From positions 1 to 22,961 of IMG/VR virus record IMGVR_UViG_3300028026_000005: a DNA stretch of 22,961 nucleotides; one strand, written 5' to 3'. This DNA comes from a virus. This document shows positions 8,983 to 16,011 of this stretch, one piece after another; position 1 is the stretch's first letter; each line of letters begins with the position of its first letter. The notes under the pieces are model-generated. The model did no database searches. It was not told where the DNA came from and worked only from the letters and a program-made list of their open reading frames with translations. The translations under genes and the position numbers were made by a program.

Positions 8983-9030
8983 ATGATCGTCGGCGAAATC
9001 CCTAGAGAATACTCCTCTATGTCGAGGTGA
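8983..9030 (+). CDS. Possible 15-aa micro-ORF
   Basis: GAGGAG RBS before ATG 8983; MIVGEIPREYSSMSR. Confidence 0.35.
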   Translation: MIVGEIPREYSSMSR

Positions 9031-9040
9031 AAAATAGATA

Positions 9041-9069
9041 GTGGCGGGGCTACTTGGTGGCCCCGCTGC
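9041..9069 (+). terminator. GC-rich intergenic hairpin
   Basis: GTGGCGGGGCTAC-ttg-GTGGCCCCGCTGC, 13 bp including G-U pairs; no U-tail. Confidence 0.45.
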
Positions 9070-9087
9070 GACCAACAGGAGGTTAGC

Positions 9088-9387
9088 TTGTTAAAGCAAA
9101 AAGTTAGAACGGTACGAATAGTTGAAAATAATGCAGGTAGATTTTTCTACCCAGTAGCCATTAACGGCGAAATGATTTTCAAGAGAGAAGAAGATGCGAA
9201 AGCGGAACTTAAAAAGTTGTTGCAATTATTGCAAACGTTAGGGCTTGAGGGGAAAGTTAGCATAGCGCCAGTTTTCCTCCCTTTCTACATAAGCGGGTGG
9301 TATTTAGTTTATGACCCAAAATCCGACACAGATCAAATTTTGCAAACATTAGGTGAGCTGTTAAATTTTGGAAACTGTGATGAATAG
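9088..9387 (+). CDS. Hypothetical protein
   Basis: AGGAGG RBS, TTG start. Confidence 0.75.
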   Translation: MLKQKVRTVRIVENNAGRFFYPVAINGEMIFKREEDAKAELKKLLQLLQTLGLEGKVSIAPVFLPFYISGWYLVYDPKSDTDQILQTLGELLNFGNCDE

Positions 9388-9408
9388 ATCGGGAAGCAAG
9401 GAGTTATT

Positions 9409-9690
9409 TTGGGAAAAGGTTTCTTAGGTAGGAAAATACTCTCGAAAAAAGTTAGTAATTTGTTGTTTGGGGAAATTAAAAAAAAGCGGAGATGCGCAAA
9501 ACTGACAAAACTGTACAAATCAATGATGTTGCCCAGCTTGGGTGCGGCGGCGCTTTTTGTTGTAGGGGCGATACTAACAGCCTATACAGGTAATTTCTTG
9601 TACTGGCTAATAGGATTGGTTTTAGTGTTTGCTTACCCTGCATTGATTTTGTGGATGTTGTGGACTTGCAAGGAAACGCGAGAAAAATGA
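9409..9690 (+). CDS. Membrane protein with two TM helices
   Basis: AAGGAG RBS; basic N-terminus followed by two hydrophobic segments. Confidence 0.75.
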   Translation: MGKGFLGRKILSKKVSNLLFGEIKKKRRCAKLTKLYKSMMLPSLGAAALFVVGAILTAYTGNFLYWLIGLVLVFAYPALILWMLWTCKETREK

Positions 9691-9700
9691 GGAGAGTAAA

Positions 9701-10318
9701 ATGAATTTGAACAAAACAGACGGTACTAAGTTTTGCAAAGCAATTTTTGAATCTGAAAAGCTGTCTAGTTTATCTCCGGCTGAGCTTAAAAAGGTAGAGA
9801 AAATAAGTCTCCTCGAGAAGGAGATTGACATGGATGAACTCAGCTCAATTCTTGTCCAATGCGTTAATCTAAAAAAACTTACTCTTACCAATCCGCGCCA
9901 CCCGAATTGGGATTTTTTAGCTAATTTAACCTTGCTTGAATATGTCTTATTGGAGGGTGCTAAAAGTTTGAAAACTGCCATAGAATTCATGAGCAATCTT
10001 CCAAGGTTAACGACCCTTATAGTAATTAACAGTCCGTTGATGGACGATAGCATCAAAATGTTAAAGAAATCCAATATTAAAATGCTCGGGTTGCCAGGCA
10101 CTCTAGTGACGGACAGCTCAGCAGAAAGTTTAAGTAAAATTAATCTTGAAGAATTAGATTTAGCGTGGACACTAATTGGGGATGCAGGTGCCCGTAAATT
10201 ATTTGGTATGGAACTTAAGGCTGTGCGTTTTGGGGCATATGTCACAGAAGGCTGCATCAAAGAATTTAAGGCAGTCAATCCAACCTGCAAAGTCTATCGA
10301 AACTGGGAGCATGTATGA
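9701..10318 (+). CDS. Leucine-rich repeat protein
   Basis: LxxLxL repeats (NLKKLTL, LLEYVLL, RLTTLIV, NIKMLGLPGTLVTD, NLEELDLAWTLIGDAG) and cap CIKEFKAVNPTCKVY. Confidence 0.85.
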   Translation: MNLNKTDGTKFCKAIFESEKLSSLSPAELKKVEKISLLEKEIDMDELSSILVQCVNLKKLTLTNPRHPNWDFLANLTLLEYVLLEGAKSLKTAIEFMSNLPRLTTLIVINSPLMDDSIKMLKKSNIKMLGLPGTLVTDSSAESLSKINLEELDLAWTLIGDAGARKLFGMELKAVRFGAYVTEGCIKEFKAVNPTCKVYRNWEHV

Positions 10319-10590
10319 GCTCCAACAATTACCCTGACTTGCCTGCAAAATATATGTGGGCAAGTTTGAAAGGTGGAGTGTATCTGCATCGTAAAGGGAT
10401 TAATATTTCAGGGAAAGGGCAAAGAGTTACCTTCCTTACGAAAGAGGCAGCGGCGAGAGAACTGAATCGAATCTGCGACGCGCAGCACTGGACACAAGCT
10501 GAAACTGCAAGATGCTCTATTGAAAGACTGGTTGGTGTCAAGGGTGTGCCAGGCAGATATTCTATTCGACTTGGGTACGATTGCGTATAA
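10315..10590 (+). CDS. Hypothetical protein, paralogue of 6771..7079
   Basis: ATGA coupling; LPAKYMW, GVYL, RCSIERL and GRYSIRL. Confidence 0.75.
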   Translation: MSSNNYPDLPAKYMWASLKGGVYLHRKGINISGKGQRVTFLTKEAAARELNRICDAQHWTQAETARCSIERLVGVKGVPGRYSIRLGYDCV

Positions 10591-10607
10591 CAGTCCATAA
10601 CTCTTAG

Positions 10608-10635
10608 TTGAAATCGTACCCTATTACGGTATAAA
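10608..10635 (+). promoter_or_regulatory. Sigma70-like promoter, possibly driving the repeat-gene array
   Basis: TTGAAA, 16-nt spacer, TATAAA (GGTATAA context). Confidence 0.5.
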
Positions 10636-10665
10636 ACTGTGAAACAATATTATTAGGAGTGAAAT

Positions 10666-10866
10666 ATGAACAGCAATACAAAAACCAGTCATAAACCAAG
10701 AAAGTTTTTTTGGTTAGTCGAAGAAACGGCAGACGGAAAACCCGAAAGGATTATTAACGGGTTTACCTCGAAAGAGTTAGCGCTAAGAGCAAAGTTTTTA
10801 GCTGTCGCTCGCGCTGAGAAAGATAAAAATAGCGCAGAAAAGAGATATTCTATCTGCGTTAATTGA
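10666..10866 (+). CDS. Small hypothetical protein
   Basis: AGGAG RBS; GFTSKELA motif. Confidence 0.7.
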   Translation: MNSNTKTSHKPRKFFWLVEETADGKPERIINGFTSKELALRAKFLAVARAEKDKNSAEKRYSICVN

Positions 10867-10887
10867 CAAGTATTAAACTACCTGTTA

Positions 10888-10936
10888 CCCCCCCCTGAAA
10901 GGGGCGCCTAGTTGATAGCAAATCGCTGGGCGCCCC
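10888..10936 (+). promoter_or_regulatory. C8 tract and two mutually exclusive hairpins upstream of the repeat-gene array
   Basis: CCCC-TGAAA-GGGG (10892-10904) competes with GGGGCGCCTAG (10901-10911) pairing to CTGGGCGCCCC (10926-10936). Confidence 0.45.
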
Positions 10937-10981
10937 GAAAATTATCTTTTGGCTTCTTTTTTTACGGAGGAGAATGAAAAA

Positions 10982-12355
10982 ATGATTTGCATAAAAGCAT
11001 TTGAGAAAGGTTTGATTTGCAAGGGCTTCCCATACGAAGTTGGCAAAACATACATCATGTCAAGGAACAAGGTCAAGCTTTGCAGTAGAGGTTTCCATGC
11101 TGCGAACGGCACGGATCCAAGCCTTACGTTGGAGTATTATTCACTAACAGAATCGACCGAATATTGCTTGGTAGATATTAACGTAGTATCATCAGATGAC
11201 GACAAAGTTGTTGGCGACAAGATTAAGATAGTGCGCAAGTTATCTTTAGATGAGGTCATAGAACTAGATAAAACCGGCGAATGGTGTGCTTGTTTTGCAA
11301 CATACGTCAAAGGCGCCGACATCAAGAAGCTTCAAGCTGCGGTTATCAAGAAAGATAAAACTGGCGAATGGTGCGCTTACTTTGCAGCATACGTCAAAGG
11401 CGCCGACATCAAGAAGCTTCAAGCTGCGGTTGTAAAACTAGATAAAACTGGCGAATGGTGCGCTTACTTTGCGGGCCACGTCAAAGCCGCCGACGTTAAA
11501 AAGCTTCAGGCTAAGGTTATAAAACTAGATAAAACTGGCCAATGGTGTGCCAACTTTGCAATATTTGCCGAAGGTGCAGACATCAAGAAACTTCAAGCTG
11601 AGGTTATCAAGAAAGATGAAACCGGCCAATGGTGCCATTGGTTTGCAAGAGCAGTCGAAGGTGCCGACATAGAGAAACTTCAAGCTGAGGTTATCAAGAA
11701 AGACAAGATTGGCGAATGGTGCTATCTCTTTGCAAGAGACGTCAAAGGTGCCGACATCAAAAAGCTCCAAACTGCGGTTATTGAGAAAGACAAAACTGGC
11801 GAAGAGTGTACCTACTTTGCAGAATACGTCGAAGGCGCTGATATCAAAAAGCTCGAAGCTGAGGTTATCAAGAAAGATAAGACTGGGAAATGGTGCCGTT
11901 GGTTTGCAAAATACATCAGGTGGGCCGACTTCGAGAAGCTCCAAGCTGAGGTTATCAAGAAGGATAAGACTGGCGAACAGTGTTATAGCTTTGCAAGAGA
12001 TGTAAAAGGCGCAGCCATCAAGAAACTCCAAGCAGAGGTTATTAAGAAAGATAAAACTGGTAGATGGTGTGCTTACTTTGCAGCATTGATTCAAGCCGCC
12101 GACATCAAAAAGCTCCAAACTGCGGTTATTAAGAAAGATAAGACTGGCAGATGGTGCCTCTACTTTGCAGATTACATCAAAGGTGCAGACATTGAAAAGC
12201 TCCAAGCTGCGGTTATTGAAAAAGACAAAACCGGCAAATTGTGCTATAACTTTGCGAGAGACGTCGAAGGTGCAGACATCGGGAAGCTTCAAGATGCGAT
12301 TGCAGGCAAAGATAAGCGCAATCAATTGGCCAAGCGTTTGTTAAACATGCCGTGA
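10982..12355 (+). CDS. DUF7666-like N-terminal domain + 12 x 29-aa hypervariable helical repeats (457 aa)
   Basis: GGAGG at 10966-10970; the start MICIKAF is shared with the paralogues. The 98-aa head (KAF..GL.CKGF.YEVGKTY...GFHA...YY...YCLV...KIKIVRKLSL) is followed by repeats GEWCxxFAxxVKGADIKKLQAAVIKKDKT. Confidence 0.9.
   Translation: MICIKAFEKGLICKGFPYEVGKTYIMSRNKVKLCSRGFHAANGTDPSLTLEYYSLTESTEYCLVDINVVSSDDDKVVGDKIKIVRKLSLDEVIELDKTGEWCACFATYVKGADIKKLQAAVIKKDKTGEWCAYFAAYVKGADIKKLQAAVVKLDKTGEWCAYFAGHVKAADVKKLQAKVIKLDKTGQWCANFAIFAEGADIKKLQAEVIKKDETGQWCHWFARAVEGADIEKLQAEVIKKDKIGEWCYLFARDVKGADIKKLQTAVIEKDKTGEECTYFAEYVEGADIKKLEAEVIKKDKTGKWCRWFAKYIRWADFEKLQAEVIKKDKTGEQCYSFARDVKGAAIKKLQAEVIKKDKTGRWCAYFAALIQAADIKKLQTAVIKKDKTGRWCLYFADYIKGADIEKLQAAVIEKDKTGKLCYNFARDVEGADIGKLQDAIAGKDKRNQLAKRLLNMP
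11276..12319 (+). repeat. 12 x 87-bp coding tandem repeat
   Basis: Counted directly: 98 + 12x29 + 11 = 457 aa. Confidence 0.9.
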
Positions 12356-12365
12356 AGGAAGAAAA

Positions 12366-13409
12366 ATGATTTGCATAAAAGCATTTGGGGCAGGTTTGGT
12401 TTGCAAGGGCTTTCAGTACGAAGTCGGCAAAACATACATCATGCCAAGGAACAAGGTCAAGCTTTACAGGAGCGGGTTCCATGCTGCGAACGGCACGGAT
12501 CCAAGCCTTACTTTGGAGTATTACCCATTAACAGAAACGACCGAATATTGCATGGTCGACATTAACGTAATATCATCAGATGGCGACAAAGTTGTTGGCG
12601 ATAAGATCAAGATATTGCGCAAGTTATCTTTGGATGAGGTCATAGAACTAGACAAGACTGGTGAATGGTGCTTCAACTTTGCGAAAGACGTAAAAGGTGC
12701 CGACATCAAAAAGTTTCAAGCTAAGGTTATTGAGAAAGATAAAACTGGCGAATGGTGCGCTTACTTTGCAGCATTTGTCAAAGGTGCCGACATCGAGAAA
12801 CTTCAAGCGGCGGTTATCGGGAAAAATAAGACTGGCAGATGGTGTACCTACTTTGCAGAATACGTAAAAGGTGCCGACATCAAAAAACTTCAAGCTGCAG
12901 TTATCAAGAAAGACAAAACTGGCTATCCGTGCTACGACTTTGCAAAACACGTCAAAGGTGCCGACATTAAAAAGCTCGAAGCTGCTGTTATTGAGAAAGA
13001 TAAGATCGGCGATATGTGCTATCTCTTTGCAAGATACATCAAAGGCGCAGACATCAAGAAACTTCAAGCTGCGGTTATCAAGAAGGATGAAACTGGCTTT
13101 TGGTGCTTTCGGTTTGCAAGATACGTCAAAGGTGCCGACATCAAAAAGCTCCAAGCTGCAGTTATCAAAAAAGACAAGACTGGCCAATGGTGCTATCGGT
13201 TTGCAGAAGACGTCAAAGGCGCAGACATCAAGAAACTTCAAGCTAAGGTTGTCAATAAAGATGGAATCGGCGAATACTGTTATTGCTTTGCAAGAGGCGT
13301 CAAGGGTGCCGACATCGAAAAGCTTCAAGCGGCGGTTGCAGGCAAAGATAAGCGTCGTCGATGGATCAAGCGTTTGTTGGATATACCGGTTCAAAAGGAA
13401 GAAAAATGA
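12366..13409 (+). CDS. DUF7666-like domain + 8 x 29-aa repeats (347 aa)
   Basis: Paralogue of 10982..12355; 98 + 8x29 + 17 aa. Confidence 0.9.
   Translation: MICIKAFGAGLVCKGFQYEVGKTYIMPRNKVKLYRSGFHAANGTDPSLTLEYYPLTETTEYCMVDINVISSDGDKVVGDKIKILRKLSLDEVIELDKTGEWCFNFAKDVKGADIKKFQAKVIEKDKTGEWCAYFAAFVKGADIEKLQAAVIGKNKTGRWCTYFAEYVKGADIKKLQAAVIKKDKTGYPCYDFAKHVKGADIKKLEAAVIEKDKIGDMCYLFARYIKGADIKKLQAAVIKKDETGFWCFRFARYVKGADIKKLQAAVIKKDKTGQWCYRFAEDVKGADIKKLQAKVVNKDGIGEYCYCFARGVKGADIEKLQAAVAGKDKRRRWIKRLLDIPVQKEEK
12660..13355 (+). repeat. 8 x 87-bp coding tandem repeat
   Basis: Counted directly from the translation. Confidence 0.9.
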
Positions 13410-14575
13410 TTTGCATAAAAGCATTTGGTGACGGTTTGTTTTGCAATGGCTTCCCATTCGAAGTTGGCAAAACATACACCATGCCAAAGTACAAGGTCAA
13501 GCTTTACGAGAGCGGTTTTCATGCTGCGAACGGCACTGATCCAAGCCTTACTTTGAACTATTATCCGCCAATAAAAACGACCGAATATTGTTTGGTCGAC
13601 ATTAACGTAGTATTGTCAGATGGTTACGAAGTTGTTGGCGATAAGATCACGATATTACGCAAGTTGTCTTTGGATGAGGTCATAGAAAAAGACAAGACTG
13701 GCAAATGGTGCTATCGGTTTGCAACAGACGTAAAGGGTGCCGACATCAAAAAGTTTCAAGCTAAGGTTATCAAGAAATGTAAAACCGGCGAATGGTGTTT
13801 TTGGTTTGCACGACACGTAAAGGGTGCCGACATCAAAAAGCTTCAAGCGGCAGTTATAAAAAAAGACGAAACTGGCGAATGGTGCTATAACTTTGCAAAA
13901 CACATAAAAGGCGCCGACGTCAAAAAGCTTCAAGCTAAGGTTATCAAGAAGGATAAAACCGGCTATTGGTGCTGTCTCTTTGCAAGATACGTCAAAGGTG
14001 CCGACATCGAGAAACTTCAAGCGGCGGTTATCGGGAAAGATAAGACTAGCTATTGGTGCTTTCTCTTTGCAAGATACGTCAAAGGCGCAGACATAAAGAA
14101 GCTTCAAGCCGCAGTTATCAAGAAAGACGAGTTCGGCGAATTGTGCTACGACTTTGCAAGATACATCAAAGGTGCCGACATCAAAAAGCTTCAAGCTGCG
14201 ATTATTAAGAAAGATGAAACCGGAAAATTGTATTTCAAACTTGCGGCATACGTCGAAGGTGCAGACATCAAGAAGCTTCAAGCTAAGGTCATCAAGAAGG
14301 ATAAGACTGGCGAATGGTGTTTTTTGTTTGTAAAACACGTCGAAGGTGCAGACATTAAAAAGCTCGAAGCTGCGGTTGTTGAGAAAGATAAGACTGGCGA
14401 ATGGTGCTATTATTTTGCAAACGAGATCGAAGGTGCCGACATCGAGAAACTTCAAGACGCTGTTATTGAAAAAGGTAAAACTGCTCTTTGGTGCCAGTGC
14501 TTTGAAATAGTTAAGGGCGCAGACATAAAGAAGCTTCAAACTGCGATTGCAGATAAAGATTGGAGGCGTCAATGA
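13406..14575 (+). CDS. DUF7666-like domain + 10 x 29-aa repeats (389 aa)
   Basis: The likely start MICIKAF at 13406 overlaps the previous stop (ATGA); the last repeat is 28 aa. Confidence 0.9.
   Translation: MICIKAFGDGLFCNGFPFEVGKTYTMPKYKVKLYESGFHAANGTDPSLTLNYYPPIKTTEYCLVDINVVLSDGYEVVGDKITILRKLSLDEVIEKDKTGKWCYRFATDVKGADIKKFQAKVIKKCKTGEWCFWFARHVKGADIKKLQAAVIKKDETGEWCYNFAKHIKGADVKKLQAKVIKKDKTGYWCCLFARYVKGADIEKLQAAVIGKDKTSYWCFLFARYVKGADIKKLQAAVIKKDEFGELCYDFARYIKGADIKKLQAAIIKKDETGKLYFKLAAYVEGADIKKLQAKVIKKDKTGEWCFLFVKHVEGADIKKLEAAVVEKDKTGEWCYYFANEIEGADIEKLQDAVIEKGKTALWCQCFEIVKGADIKKLQTAIADKDWRRQ
13700..14566 (+). repeat. 10 x ~87-bp coding tandem repeat
   Basis: Nine units of 87 bp plus one of 84 bp. 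Confidence 0.9.
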
Positions 14576-14760
14576 GCCCAGCTGATTTCGTTATAGCACT
14601 AGATAAAACCGGCGAATTGTGCTATTGGTTTGCAAAATACGTAAAAGGTGCTGACATTGAGAAGCTCGAAGCTGCAGTTGTTAAAAAACGCGAACTTGAT
14701 TTTTGGGACCTTTTCTCTGACCTTAAGTTTTGTTCTGAGAAACTGTTCTGTGGCTGCTAG
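14572..14760 (+). CDS. Single-repeat mini-paralogue or remnant lacking the N-terminal domain (62 aa)
   Basis: GGAGG RBS and ATGA overlap; VIALDKTGELCYWFAKYVKGADIEKLEAAVVKK. Confidence 0.65.
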   Translation: MSPADFVIALDKTGELCYWFAKYVKGADIEKLEAAVVKKRELDFWDLFSDLKFCSEKLFCGC

Positions 14761-14775
14761 AAGTGGAGGAAACTT

Positions 14776-15243
14776 ATGACAATAAAAATCACTCGTAATC
14801 ACGAACACAAACCTTCTGTAATAGGTACTATTACCGAGATTGAGTTTTCGGAAACTTTCAACCCTAAGTCCTCATGGGTTGTTTTTTTCGAAGAGGTTCA
14901 AGCCGCCATCAGAGATCTTTTCTCGGCGCGATTTACTGTCGAAAAGGTTAGCTTTGTGAAAGCTCCTATTACCTGGGCCGCTGACGTTCTAAGAAGTGCA
15001 GCTATTGCCAAATTCCATAAGCTTAAGACAATAGTACTCGAAAATTGTCAAGCAAAACCTGACTCGAAATGGTTCGGTGAGATTCCACGGTTCCCATTCT
15101 TGGAGGAGGTGTTTTTTCGTGGAACGAACATCTCGGAAGAGCAAGTTAATAAGCTAAGGAAGAAGTTGGCTGGCGTCAAGATTATTATTGAAAGGAGAAC
15201 AAATGGGAAACAAAAAGGGAAAACCAGAGCAACAGACAATTAA
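14776..15243 (+). CDS. Protein with short C-terminal LRR segment
   Basis: GGAGG RBS; KLKTIVLENC and FPFLEEVFFRGTNISEEQVNKLRKKLAGVKII. Confidence 0.75.
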   Translation: MTIKITRNHEHKPSVIGTITEIEFSETFNPKSSWVVFFEEVQAAIRDLFSARFTVEKVSFVKAPITWAADVLRSAAIAKFHKLKTIVLENCQAKPDSKWFGEIPRFPFLEEVFFRGTNISEEQVNKLRKKLAGVKIIIERRTNGKQKGKTRATDN

Positions 15244-15643
15244 TTACCTAATAATATCTGGTAAAATTGCAACAGAAGTTAAGACATGGCTAAATCAGGG
15301 TTACCCGGATCCAGTGTGCCGTTTCACTCTTGCAGTTGAGCATGGCGCGAACGGTGGACAAGCTTGCAAAACAGTGTACGGGACATCGGTTTTTGACGTG
15401 TACTTTGACAGTACGGCCATAAAACAGCAACACCTTGATTTGTTCCGCAAAGGTGTTTATGTAGTAGTTGAAGGCTCGGTATACAGATTGAAGCGTAAGG
15501 TTTCCGAAACAGGAGAAATAGAACAAACCTCTGCACGCATAATTGCTCGGAAGATAAGCCTTGTTAACGCTATAAGTGGCGAGCCACCCAGTGGCTTAGT
15601 TACTAAGACAGAAAGGAATAAAGATGCGTGCAACAAAAAATAA
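15203..15643 (+). CDS. ssb: Single-stranded DNA-binding protein (OB fold), no acidic tail
   Basis: AAAGGAG RBS before ATG 15203; INYLIISGKI...CRFTLAV...FRKGVYVVVEGSV...ARIIARKI follows the SSB pattern. Confidence 0.75.
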   Translation: MGNKKGKPEQQTINYLIISGKIATEVKTWLNQGYPDPVCRFTLAVEHGANGGQACKTVYGTSVFDVYFDSTAIKQQHLDLFRKGVYVVVEGSVYRLKRKVSETGEIEQTSARIIARKISLVNAISGEPPSGLVTKTERNKDACNKK

Positions 15644-15890
15644 AAGTTTGCCGCCTTTTTTAGCTAGTCAATATTTTGAATGGGGACATGTTGTACTAGC
15701 CGGGATATTGACTGAAGTTGAAAACAATCAGGTTAAGGCGAGTATTTACCTAACAGTTTATGCAAGCAGTAAATGCGAAAAGTCATCTCCCATGATTGTC
15801 AACTTGGACGCTGGGATTTTCAAAACTGCTAAAGATGCTACCTCGTGGGTAAAAAATAACATAAAAAGGTATGCCTCAGCTAGTAAATGA
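15624..15890 (+). CDS. Hypothetical protein
   Basis: AAAGGA RBS; overlaps the end of ssb. Confidence 0.65.
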   Translation: MRATKNKSLPPFLASQYFEWGHVVLAGILTEVENNQVKASIYLTVYASSKCEKSSPMIVNLDAGIFKTAKDATSWVKNNIKRYASASK

Positions 15891-15899
15891 AGCGCTAAC

Positions 15900-15927
15900 T
15901 TGACAACGCTGGAACAATTGGTATAAT
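15900..15927 (+). promoter_or_regulatory. Near-consensus sigma70 promoter with extended -10
   Basis: TTGACA (15900-15905), 16-nt spacer ending TGG, TATAAT (15922-15927). Confidence 0.85.
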
Positions 15928-15966
15928 ATGTTTATCCGTTAACGCCGATAGGTCGGCAGAAATATC

Positions 15967-16011
15967 GCCCTTCTTCCCGTGTAAGCATACAAAGGGAAGA
16001 GGGGCTTTTTT
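15967..16011 (+). terminator. Intrinsic terminator starting ~40 nt downstream of the -10
   Basis: GCCCTTCTTCCC pairs with GGGAAGAGGGGC (12 bp), followed by T6. Confidence 0.8.

Follow-up and report, generated by a model that had tools for sequence, protein, structure and literature searches.

A tandem array of four genes at positions 10982-14760 of a phage sequence encodes repeats of a family of 28-29-residue units that no model in Pfam, NCBIfam or PHROG covers; the family, and its fusion to a DUF7666 head in arrays of several paralogues, are new. The stretch analysed (the window) covers bases 1-22,961 of the 98.6-kb IMG/VR virus record IMGVR_UViG_3300028026_000005, whose completeness is estimated at about 53%. 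All four genes (g1-g4) lie on the + strand; three consist of a head followed by repeats and one is headless. Alpha-solenoid binders are an already known kind of protein, as are DUF7666-headed repeat proteins, the latter as an uncharacterised Pfam family. The repeats are predicted to stack into an alpha-solenoid that displays a stripe of variable residues on one layer. We propose, with evenly balanced confidence, that this stripe is a recognition surface aimed at host or competitor proteins or peptides and that the head is its constant partner.

Each unit follows the pattern G-x-x-C-x-x-F-A-x-x-VKGADIKKLQAAVIKKDKT, has 29 residues and stays in register at an exact 87-nt spacing. The translations contain 12 copies in g1, 8 in g2, 10 in g3 (the last of these one codon short) and one in g4, 31 units in all, and Tandem Repeats Finder (TRF) independently recovers the 87-nt period. 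This confirms the copy numbers and the near-constant scaffold that an earlier note had read from the sequence. A 261-nt super-period given by TRF was rejected as a higher-order unit, as its 76% matches equal those of the 87-nt period. No occurrence of the repeat was found elsewhere in the 98.6-kb record.

Variability within the unit is confined to a few sites. Per-position entropy is 2.35-2.92 bits at positions 2, 5, 6, 9 and 10, 1.5 bits at position 3 and at most 1.6 bits elsewhere. The 22 residue pairs at positions 5/6 and the 19 at positions 9/10 that had been listed before are correct. The five-residue combination at positions 2/5/6/9/10 is unique in every unit (31/31). Tyrosine accounts for 36 of the 154 residues at the variable sites against 5.3 expected from base composition, a 6.8-fold enrichment; phenylalanine and glutamate are enriched as well, proline, valine and methionine are absent, and serine, glycine and isoleucine almost so. 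The tyrosine enrichment and the lack of proline, valine and methionine indicate that the variable sites are not neutral filler. The residue mix on the variable face is that of binding surfaces.

The g2 protein was modelled by AlphaFold (AF2) from an alignment of 28 proteins in which DUF7666 is followed by repeats. The model has high confidence, with a mean predicted local distance difference test (pLDDT) score of 95.4 and a predicted template-modelling (pTM) score of 0.86. It runs from a beta-rich head (residues 1-87) through a linker helix into units of two helices each, in which helix A spans unit positions 2-10 and helix B positions 16-26. The repeats are thus predicted to form a two-helix alpha-solenoid, as had been anticipated, and a stacked two-helix repeat of about 30-40 residues is what the definition of HEAT-type repeats describes. 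Faces were assigned by a helical wheel drawn on the DSSP helix limits and do not represent measured solvent exposure. On this wheel the invariant C4, F7, A8 and V11 share one face of helix A, which we read as buried. Positions 2, 6 and 9 lie opposite the invariant face with position 10 beside them, in keeping with the earlier suggestion that the variable positions occupy one face of a helix, and positions 3 and 5 flank the buried face. The freely variable positions would on this geometry be 2, 6, 9 and 10, with position 5 also varying in the window genome; positions 5 and 3, semi-conserved in relatives, are probably structural. Helix B presents a constant Lys/Ala surface that is exposed in the predicted fold. 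The repeat domains are strongly basic (isoelectric point (pI) 9.2-9.6, net charge +19 to +23), and this charge is unevenly divided: about +3.8 per unit resides on the constant face and the loops, and the variable face is net zero.

Searches with the whole model returned generic or designed helical repeats without singling out a specific family (Z 7-11; Foldseek template-modelling (TM) score at most 0.40). The matches include Puf4 (Z 8.8), PUM2 (Z 7.4), the HEAT domain of symplekin (Z 7.2), YibA (Z 7.1) and LWY effectors, all of them under the level that the tool deems meaningful for helical repeats. A profile of the repeat compared with the sequences of solved structures gave chance-level matches only.

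The family is widespread. A word-indexed search found 109 related proteins, and a two-unit profile run against 1.84 billion cluster representatives found 1,662 at E ≤1e-3, these being clusters at 50% identity, and 1,088 at E ≤1e-10. Neither megablast of positions 9000-16000 nor tblastn of g2 against 50,697 phage records gave a match. Close relatives retain the DUF7666 head and the 29-residue unit. Distant relatives have a 28-residue unit with the consensus x-E-Y-I-Y-x-F-A-x-x-V-K-G-A-N-I-x-K-L-E-D-A-I-I, and either carry no recognised partner domain or are joined to many other domains (NDK, DUF1963, PcfJ, SH3b, AAA ATPase or OHA). Among metagenome proteins the 28-residue form is fused to nucleoside diphosphate kinase in three (P0054, P0056 and P0066) and to DUF1963 in one (P0048). 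Defining the family would annotate many orphan proteins.

The same positions vary throughout. In the wider family position 5 is tyrosine in 63-77% of units and position 3 tryptophan or tyrosine, positions 6, 9, 10 and 2 being the most variable, and the variability profile is alike in 97 units of DUF7666 relatives and in 669 units of distant members. A second IMG/VR phage (L005), with 30 units spread over four dispersed DUF7666-solenoid paralogues, is an independent case of variation at the same positions (entropy above 3 bits at 6, 9 and 10, about 2 bits at 5 and 2). The units group by genome (30/30 from the window, 26/30 from L005), pointing to lineage-specific expansion or homogenisation. 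Copy number is plastic, since a relative (L004) with an 88% identical head and the same C-terminal tail carries only 2 repeats.

The DUF7666 head

In g1, g2 and g3 the repeats are preceded by 98 residues that match Pfam DUF7666 (PF24703) over profile positions 1-94/95 (E 2.5e-20 to 2.6e-17; 63.5-73.2 bits against a cut-off of 27). This full-length match establishes the DUF7666-like head that had been recognised on the first three genes; g4 has no such match. A literature search found no paper on DUF7666.

Modelled alone, the head reaches a pLDDT of 94.9. Exhaustive structural comparison with 48,161 PDB representatives gave 68 chains with Z of at least 2; members of the ADP-ribosyltransferase (ART) superfamily make up almost the whole top 50, with Z up to 5.7 and 68-90 residues aligned. 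The matches comprise Arr (Z 5.7, 77 residues aligned, root-mean-square deviation 3.8), BC2332 (Z 5.5) and PARP13 (Z 4.8), and further tRNA 2'-phosphotransferase (Tpt1), the Rhs toxins TreTu and TreX, MbcT, the pertussis, diphtheria and cholix toxins, DarT and RES. The two best Foldseek matches of the head in the PDB are likewise to Arr (E 0.16-0.2). SCOP puts BC2332-like and CC0527-like proteins in the ADP-ribosylation superfamily (PMC3000352), and BC2332 was tied to diphtheria toxin by ProFunc (PMC3024214). The scores are weak, though the list of matches is homogeneous, and for this reason we regard the modelled head as a probable ART-like fold in miniature. Candidate catalytic residues are H39 (in the GFHA strand), Y52/Y53 and D65.

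A Foldseek search of predicted viral structures (BFVD) with the head recovered many RIIB proteins (E 1e-3 to 2e-2, TMq 0.63-0.73, probability 1.00), DUF7666 proteins encoded by phages and giant viruses, the Rheinheimera phage Barba28A protein named 'Pentapeptide' and, from giant viruses, the heads of proteins with ankyrin or DUF4116 repeats. Through the motif C-x-x-G-[FL]-H-[AV]-C the head of g2 (12366-12659) aligns with residues 227-260 of T4 RIIB (T4 rIIB, L008 466-1404, - strand). The C-terminal part of RIIB may, from these models, be a DUF7666-like, ART-like domain. One head is therefore joined to interchangeable repeat arrays: pentapeptide, other short-period, ankyrin, DUF4116 and, here, alpha-solenoid. 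If correctly assigned, it would connect DUF7666, a large phage family as yet uncharacterised, with both RIIB and the ADP-ribosyltransferase fold, and a set of paralogues with different tails offers a convenient system for asking what the head does.

Selection at the variable positions and the role of the solenoid

The scaffold and the variable codons evolve under different regimes. Across all unit pairs the ratio of non-synonymous to synonymous rates (dN/dS) is 0.12-0.15 for the scaffold, and dN at the variable codons over scaffold dS is 0.8-1.0. In 15 independent nearest pairs, chosen on codons 11-29 only, the ratio of non-synonymous to synonymous proportions (pN/pS) at the variable codons is 0.97 with their own pS and 1.27 with pooled pS. 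The corresponding values are 0.14 for buried helix-A residues, 0.17 (pooled pS) and 0.24 (own pS) for buried helix-B residues, and 0.29 for exposed helix-B residues. The scaffold, including the exposed part of helix B, is thus under strong purifying selection (pN/pS 0.14-0.34), and change at the variable codons proceeds at roughly the synonymous rate. These data do not demonstrate positive selection, because the ratio at the variable codons is close to one and synonymous sites are near saturation.

Exchange between units contributes to the diversity. The second unit of g2 and the fourth of g3 (g2_r2 and g3_r4) are identical over 87 nt but for nine changes, all of which fall in the five variable codons plus one other. 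The helix-A halves of these two units are each closer to another unit, which argues for mosaic recombination rather than focused mutation. The suggestion that the array is a library kept diverse by selection is consequently not borne out: its variable codons change at about the synonymous rate, and its diversity is partly a product of mosaic reshuffling.

We favour recognition modules on the strength of the architecture, the non-neutral aromatic and charged stripe, the use of the same positions in independent lineages, the plastic numbers of repeats and genes, and an accessory context with leucine-rich repeat (LRR) neighbours. Each full-length protein would be cytoplasmic and made of two modules, a constant beta-rich head of 95 residues and a superhelical stack of 8-12 repeats. 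Stacking would line up changing Tyr/Phe/Trp/Arg/Lys/Asp/His side chains as a long stripe along one layer, the other layer being uniformly basic. The stripe would recognise host proteins or peptides, or those of competing elements, and the head would provide a constant activity or docking site, so that the paralogues could aim one function at different targets during host takeover or counter-defence. Within a given phage lineage, recombination would add, remove and reshuffle repeats. The modular binders put forward in the earlier note retain their architecture and the composition of their variable face; selective maintenance of a library is not demonstrated, and a nucleic-acid code is disfavoured.

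Should the stripe bind as proposed, these proteins would be a new class of phage host-interaction proteins. They would also provide a compact natural scaffold for binder engineering, with 29 residues per unit, plastic copy number and 4-5 known specificity positions.

A serious alternative, though we consider it unlikely, is that the head alone is functional and that the solenoid serves as a spacer, a scaffold or a rod that binds polyanions (DNA, RNA or membrane) through its Lys-rich face, the variable sites being simply the least constrained. The ratio at the variable codons, near one and not clearly above it, is what such a rod would give, and conservation of the exposed helix-B residues (pN/pS 0.29) suggests that theirs is the functional face. 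DUF7666 heads also carry beta-solenoid rods of variable length. The same account has difficulty with the composition of the variable sites, which is far from neutral (tyrosine 6.8-fold; no proline, valine or methionine), and with variation that recurs at the same positions from one independent lineage to another, neighbouring exposed positions being without variation in the window genome. Three intact paralogues with non-overlapping repeat sets have, moreover, been maintained.

We judge it quite improbable that the solenoid reads nucleic acid by a per-repeat code in the manner of PUF, PPR or TALE proteins, with aromatics stacking on bases and Arg/Lys/Asp/Asn/His reading base edges. The basic repeat domains, the aromatic plus charged or polar character of the variable residues and the presence of Puf4 and PUM2 among the structural matches would all suit such a code. 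However, those Z values lie below the noise level that the tool states for helical repeats, and no PUF, PPR or TALE family is among the Pfam matches listed. Positive charge is carried by the constant helix-B face (+3.8 per unit), the variable face being net neutral. A code would be expected to reuse a handful of residue sets, and the 31 units show 31 combinations (22 pairs at 5/6, 19 at 9/10). A unit of two helices and 29 residues also departs from the three helices and 36 residues of PUF.

Diversification of the array by a dedicated mechanism such as a diversity-generating retroelement is very improbable and was rejected: a reverse transcriptase is present in the same record (90.6-91.7 kb) and the differences between g2_r2 and g3_r4 are concentrated in variable codons, but no template/variable repeat pair was found in the 98.6-kb record (about 53% complete), in which no copy of the repeat DNA lies outside 11276-14688, no direct repeat of at least 40 nt lies within 5 kb of the reverse transcriptase and no second copy of its region occurs, and Trp codons and third-position changes at the variable sites are unlike adenine-specific mutagenesis; the resemblance of each of the two A-halves to other units makes the pattern one of mosaic recombination.

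Several points weigh against the recognition surface with a constant, ART-like partner that we prefer. The exposure of the variable residues is deduced from helix geometry. A constant face so strongly basic suggests a polyanionic partner, for which the proposed model has no explanation. A ratio near one at the variable codons fits relaxed constraint within a restricted alphabet, and recombination confounds the pairwise counts. The ART similarity of the head is weak (Z up to 5.7; Foldseek E 0.16), and its profile compared with the sequences of solved structures gave chance-level matches only and no ART link. In 8 of 38 aligned heads another residue takes the place of the best-conserved histidine (GFHA), and neither the canonical H-Y-E nor the R-S-E triad could be placed in the head. 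Alignment of the head to T4 RIIB by hhalign was not significant (probability 0.6%).

A more specific version of the recognition reading, which is speculative and rather improbable, would make these proteins natural 'aimed effectors'. In it, a modular alpha-solenoid would aim a miniature ART-type, RIIB-related head at different proteins of the host's defence or housekeeping, through a Tyr/Arg-rich helix-A stripe that mutation and repeat shuffling would rewrite.

Gene layout and genomic surroundings

The coordinates of the array and of other features are collected in Table 1. The g1 start is preceded by the ribosome-binding site GGAGGAG. The start of g3 is the ATG at 13406, which overlaps the g2 stop in ATGA, and its start context AAGGAAGAAAAATG is common to g2 and g3. 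For g4 the ATG at 14572, which follows GGAGG and overlaps the g3 stop, is most likely the start, not the TTG at 14560. Starts that overlap stops (g2/g3 and g3/g4), the start context shared by g2 and g3 and the hairpin that precedes g1 make g1-g4 look like one translationally coupled unit. The hairpin is probably a terminator that sets the four genes apart; a simple terminator scan found none and did not list it, and a sigma-70 promoter scan gave a signal no higher than that of shuffled sequence. The tail of g4 ends FCSEKLFCGC, and the gene has its own GGAGG ribosome-binding site; it may encode a functional mini-protein rather than be a remnant.

Table 1 Features of the repeat array, its neighbourhood and the wider record
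Feature	Coordinates	Strand	Description
LRR protein, 205 amino acids	9701-10318	+	LRR match weak
GC-rich hairpin, then T-rich tract	10901..10936	+	Between the upstream gene and g1; minimum free energy -33.7 kcal/mol, z -2.5
g1	10982..12355	+	457 amino acids: DUF7666 head 10982-11275, 12 repeats 11276-12319, short tail
g2	12366..13409	+	347 amino acids: DUF7666 head 12366-12659, 8 repeats 12660-13355, tail RRWIKRLLDIPVQKEEK
g3	13406..14575	+	389 amino acids: DUF7666 head 13406-13699, 10 repeats 13700-14566
g4	14572..14760	+	62 amino acids, no head: end residues of the head-repeat linker, one repeat 14611-14697, Cys-rich tail
Antisense open frames	11525-12325, 12648-13487, 13655-14572	-	266-305 codons, one through each repeat array
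LRR protein, 326 amino acids	16491-17471	+	LRR_14 match, E 1.7e-16
Reverse transcriptase, 363 amino acids	G000:C1:90622-91713 (= L009 4623-5714)		PF00078, E 4.4e-17 to 5.9e-19

The three antisense frames were rejected as genes and most likely arise as by-products of repeat periodicity: it is the + strand that carries the head matches, the ribosome-binding sites and the signal of purifying selection.

All sizeable genes of the window lie on the + strand, and those around the array include an HNH endonuclease, a MazG-like pyrophosphatase and a thymidylate synthase. These genes, together with the IMG/VR virus record, support the phage origin assumed at the outset, and the window fits the early, accessory or nucleotide-metabolism arm of a large uncultivated phage. 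The solenoid and LRR genes look like a small island of repeat-type binder genes. On a related contig (L004) an LRR gene at 1735-2211, whose product is 39% identical to the 326-residue LRR protein of the window, follows a single DUF7666-solenoid gene by a few genes. The segment 17000-19300 has a G+C content of 0.35 against 0.40-0.44 around it, and the genes there have no family match; it may have been acquired more recently. One gene beyond the reverse transcriptase lies a gene for an AAA-type ATPase.

Comparison with known systems

The nearest counterparts are other DUF7666 phage proteins with repeat tails (PHROG 4433 / 14105; for example the 'Pentapeptide' protein of Barba28A), which have the same head; the PHROG matches cover this head only. 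They share the plan of a conserved head and a length-variable array, and are likewise phage accessory genes, often in paralogous sets. In the proteins retrieved the tail is of beta type, built from short repeats such as the pentapeptide and GA(A/T)S(A/N)(T/S)G-type ones, whereas here it is an alpha-solenoid of 29-residue, two-helix units.

In fold the head resembles the ART superfamily (Arr, BC2332-like proteins and Tpt1/KptA). Tankyrase is a modular ART in which ankyrin repeats are combined with a PARP domain, and the logic would be alike, in that a repeat array picks the targets of an attached ART-type domain. At about 90 residues, the head is smaller than any active ART known to us. Of the RIIB proteins, that of T4 counters RexAB (PMC13716836), by a mechanism that neither PMC13716836 nor PMC7824862 describes; it differs from the present proteins in having an N-terminal helix-turn-helix and no repeat array.

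PUF, PPR and TALE proteins are comparable as alpha-solenoids with few specificity positions per repeat. The array lacks the 36-residue three-helix units of PUF and the recurring tripartite motifs, and the Pfam matches listed for it include no PUF family.

HEAT-like, PBS-lyase-type repeats underlie alphaRep, a set of artificial binder libraries whose variable positions belong to the second helix. The present repeats have in common with them a unit of about 30 residues with two antiparallel helices that cross at a small residue, a glycine in the turn, and a constant scaffold with few variable surface positions. They differ in that the variable positions are on the first, shorter helix and that Trp-Cys is conserved at positions 3-4. 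The Pfam matches listed at E ≤1 for the four proteins include no HEAT-type family; the HMMER filters drop most matches above E of about 0.1, so that a weak one may have escaped. The solenoid superposes poorly on any solved solenoid (Foldseek TM score at most 0.40). Were the head indeed an effector aimed by its repeats, phages would possess in this array an equivalent of the alphaRep and DARPin libraries and of targeting in the style of tankyrase; the array would also give a first handle on the role of the RIIB/DUF7666 fold.

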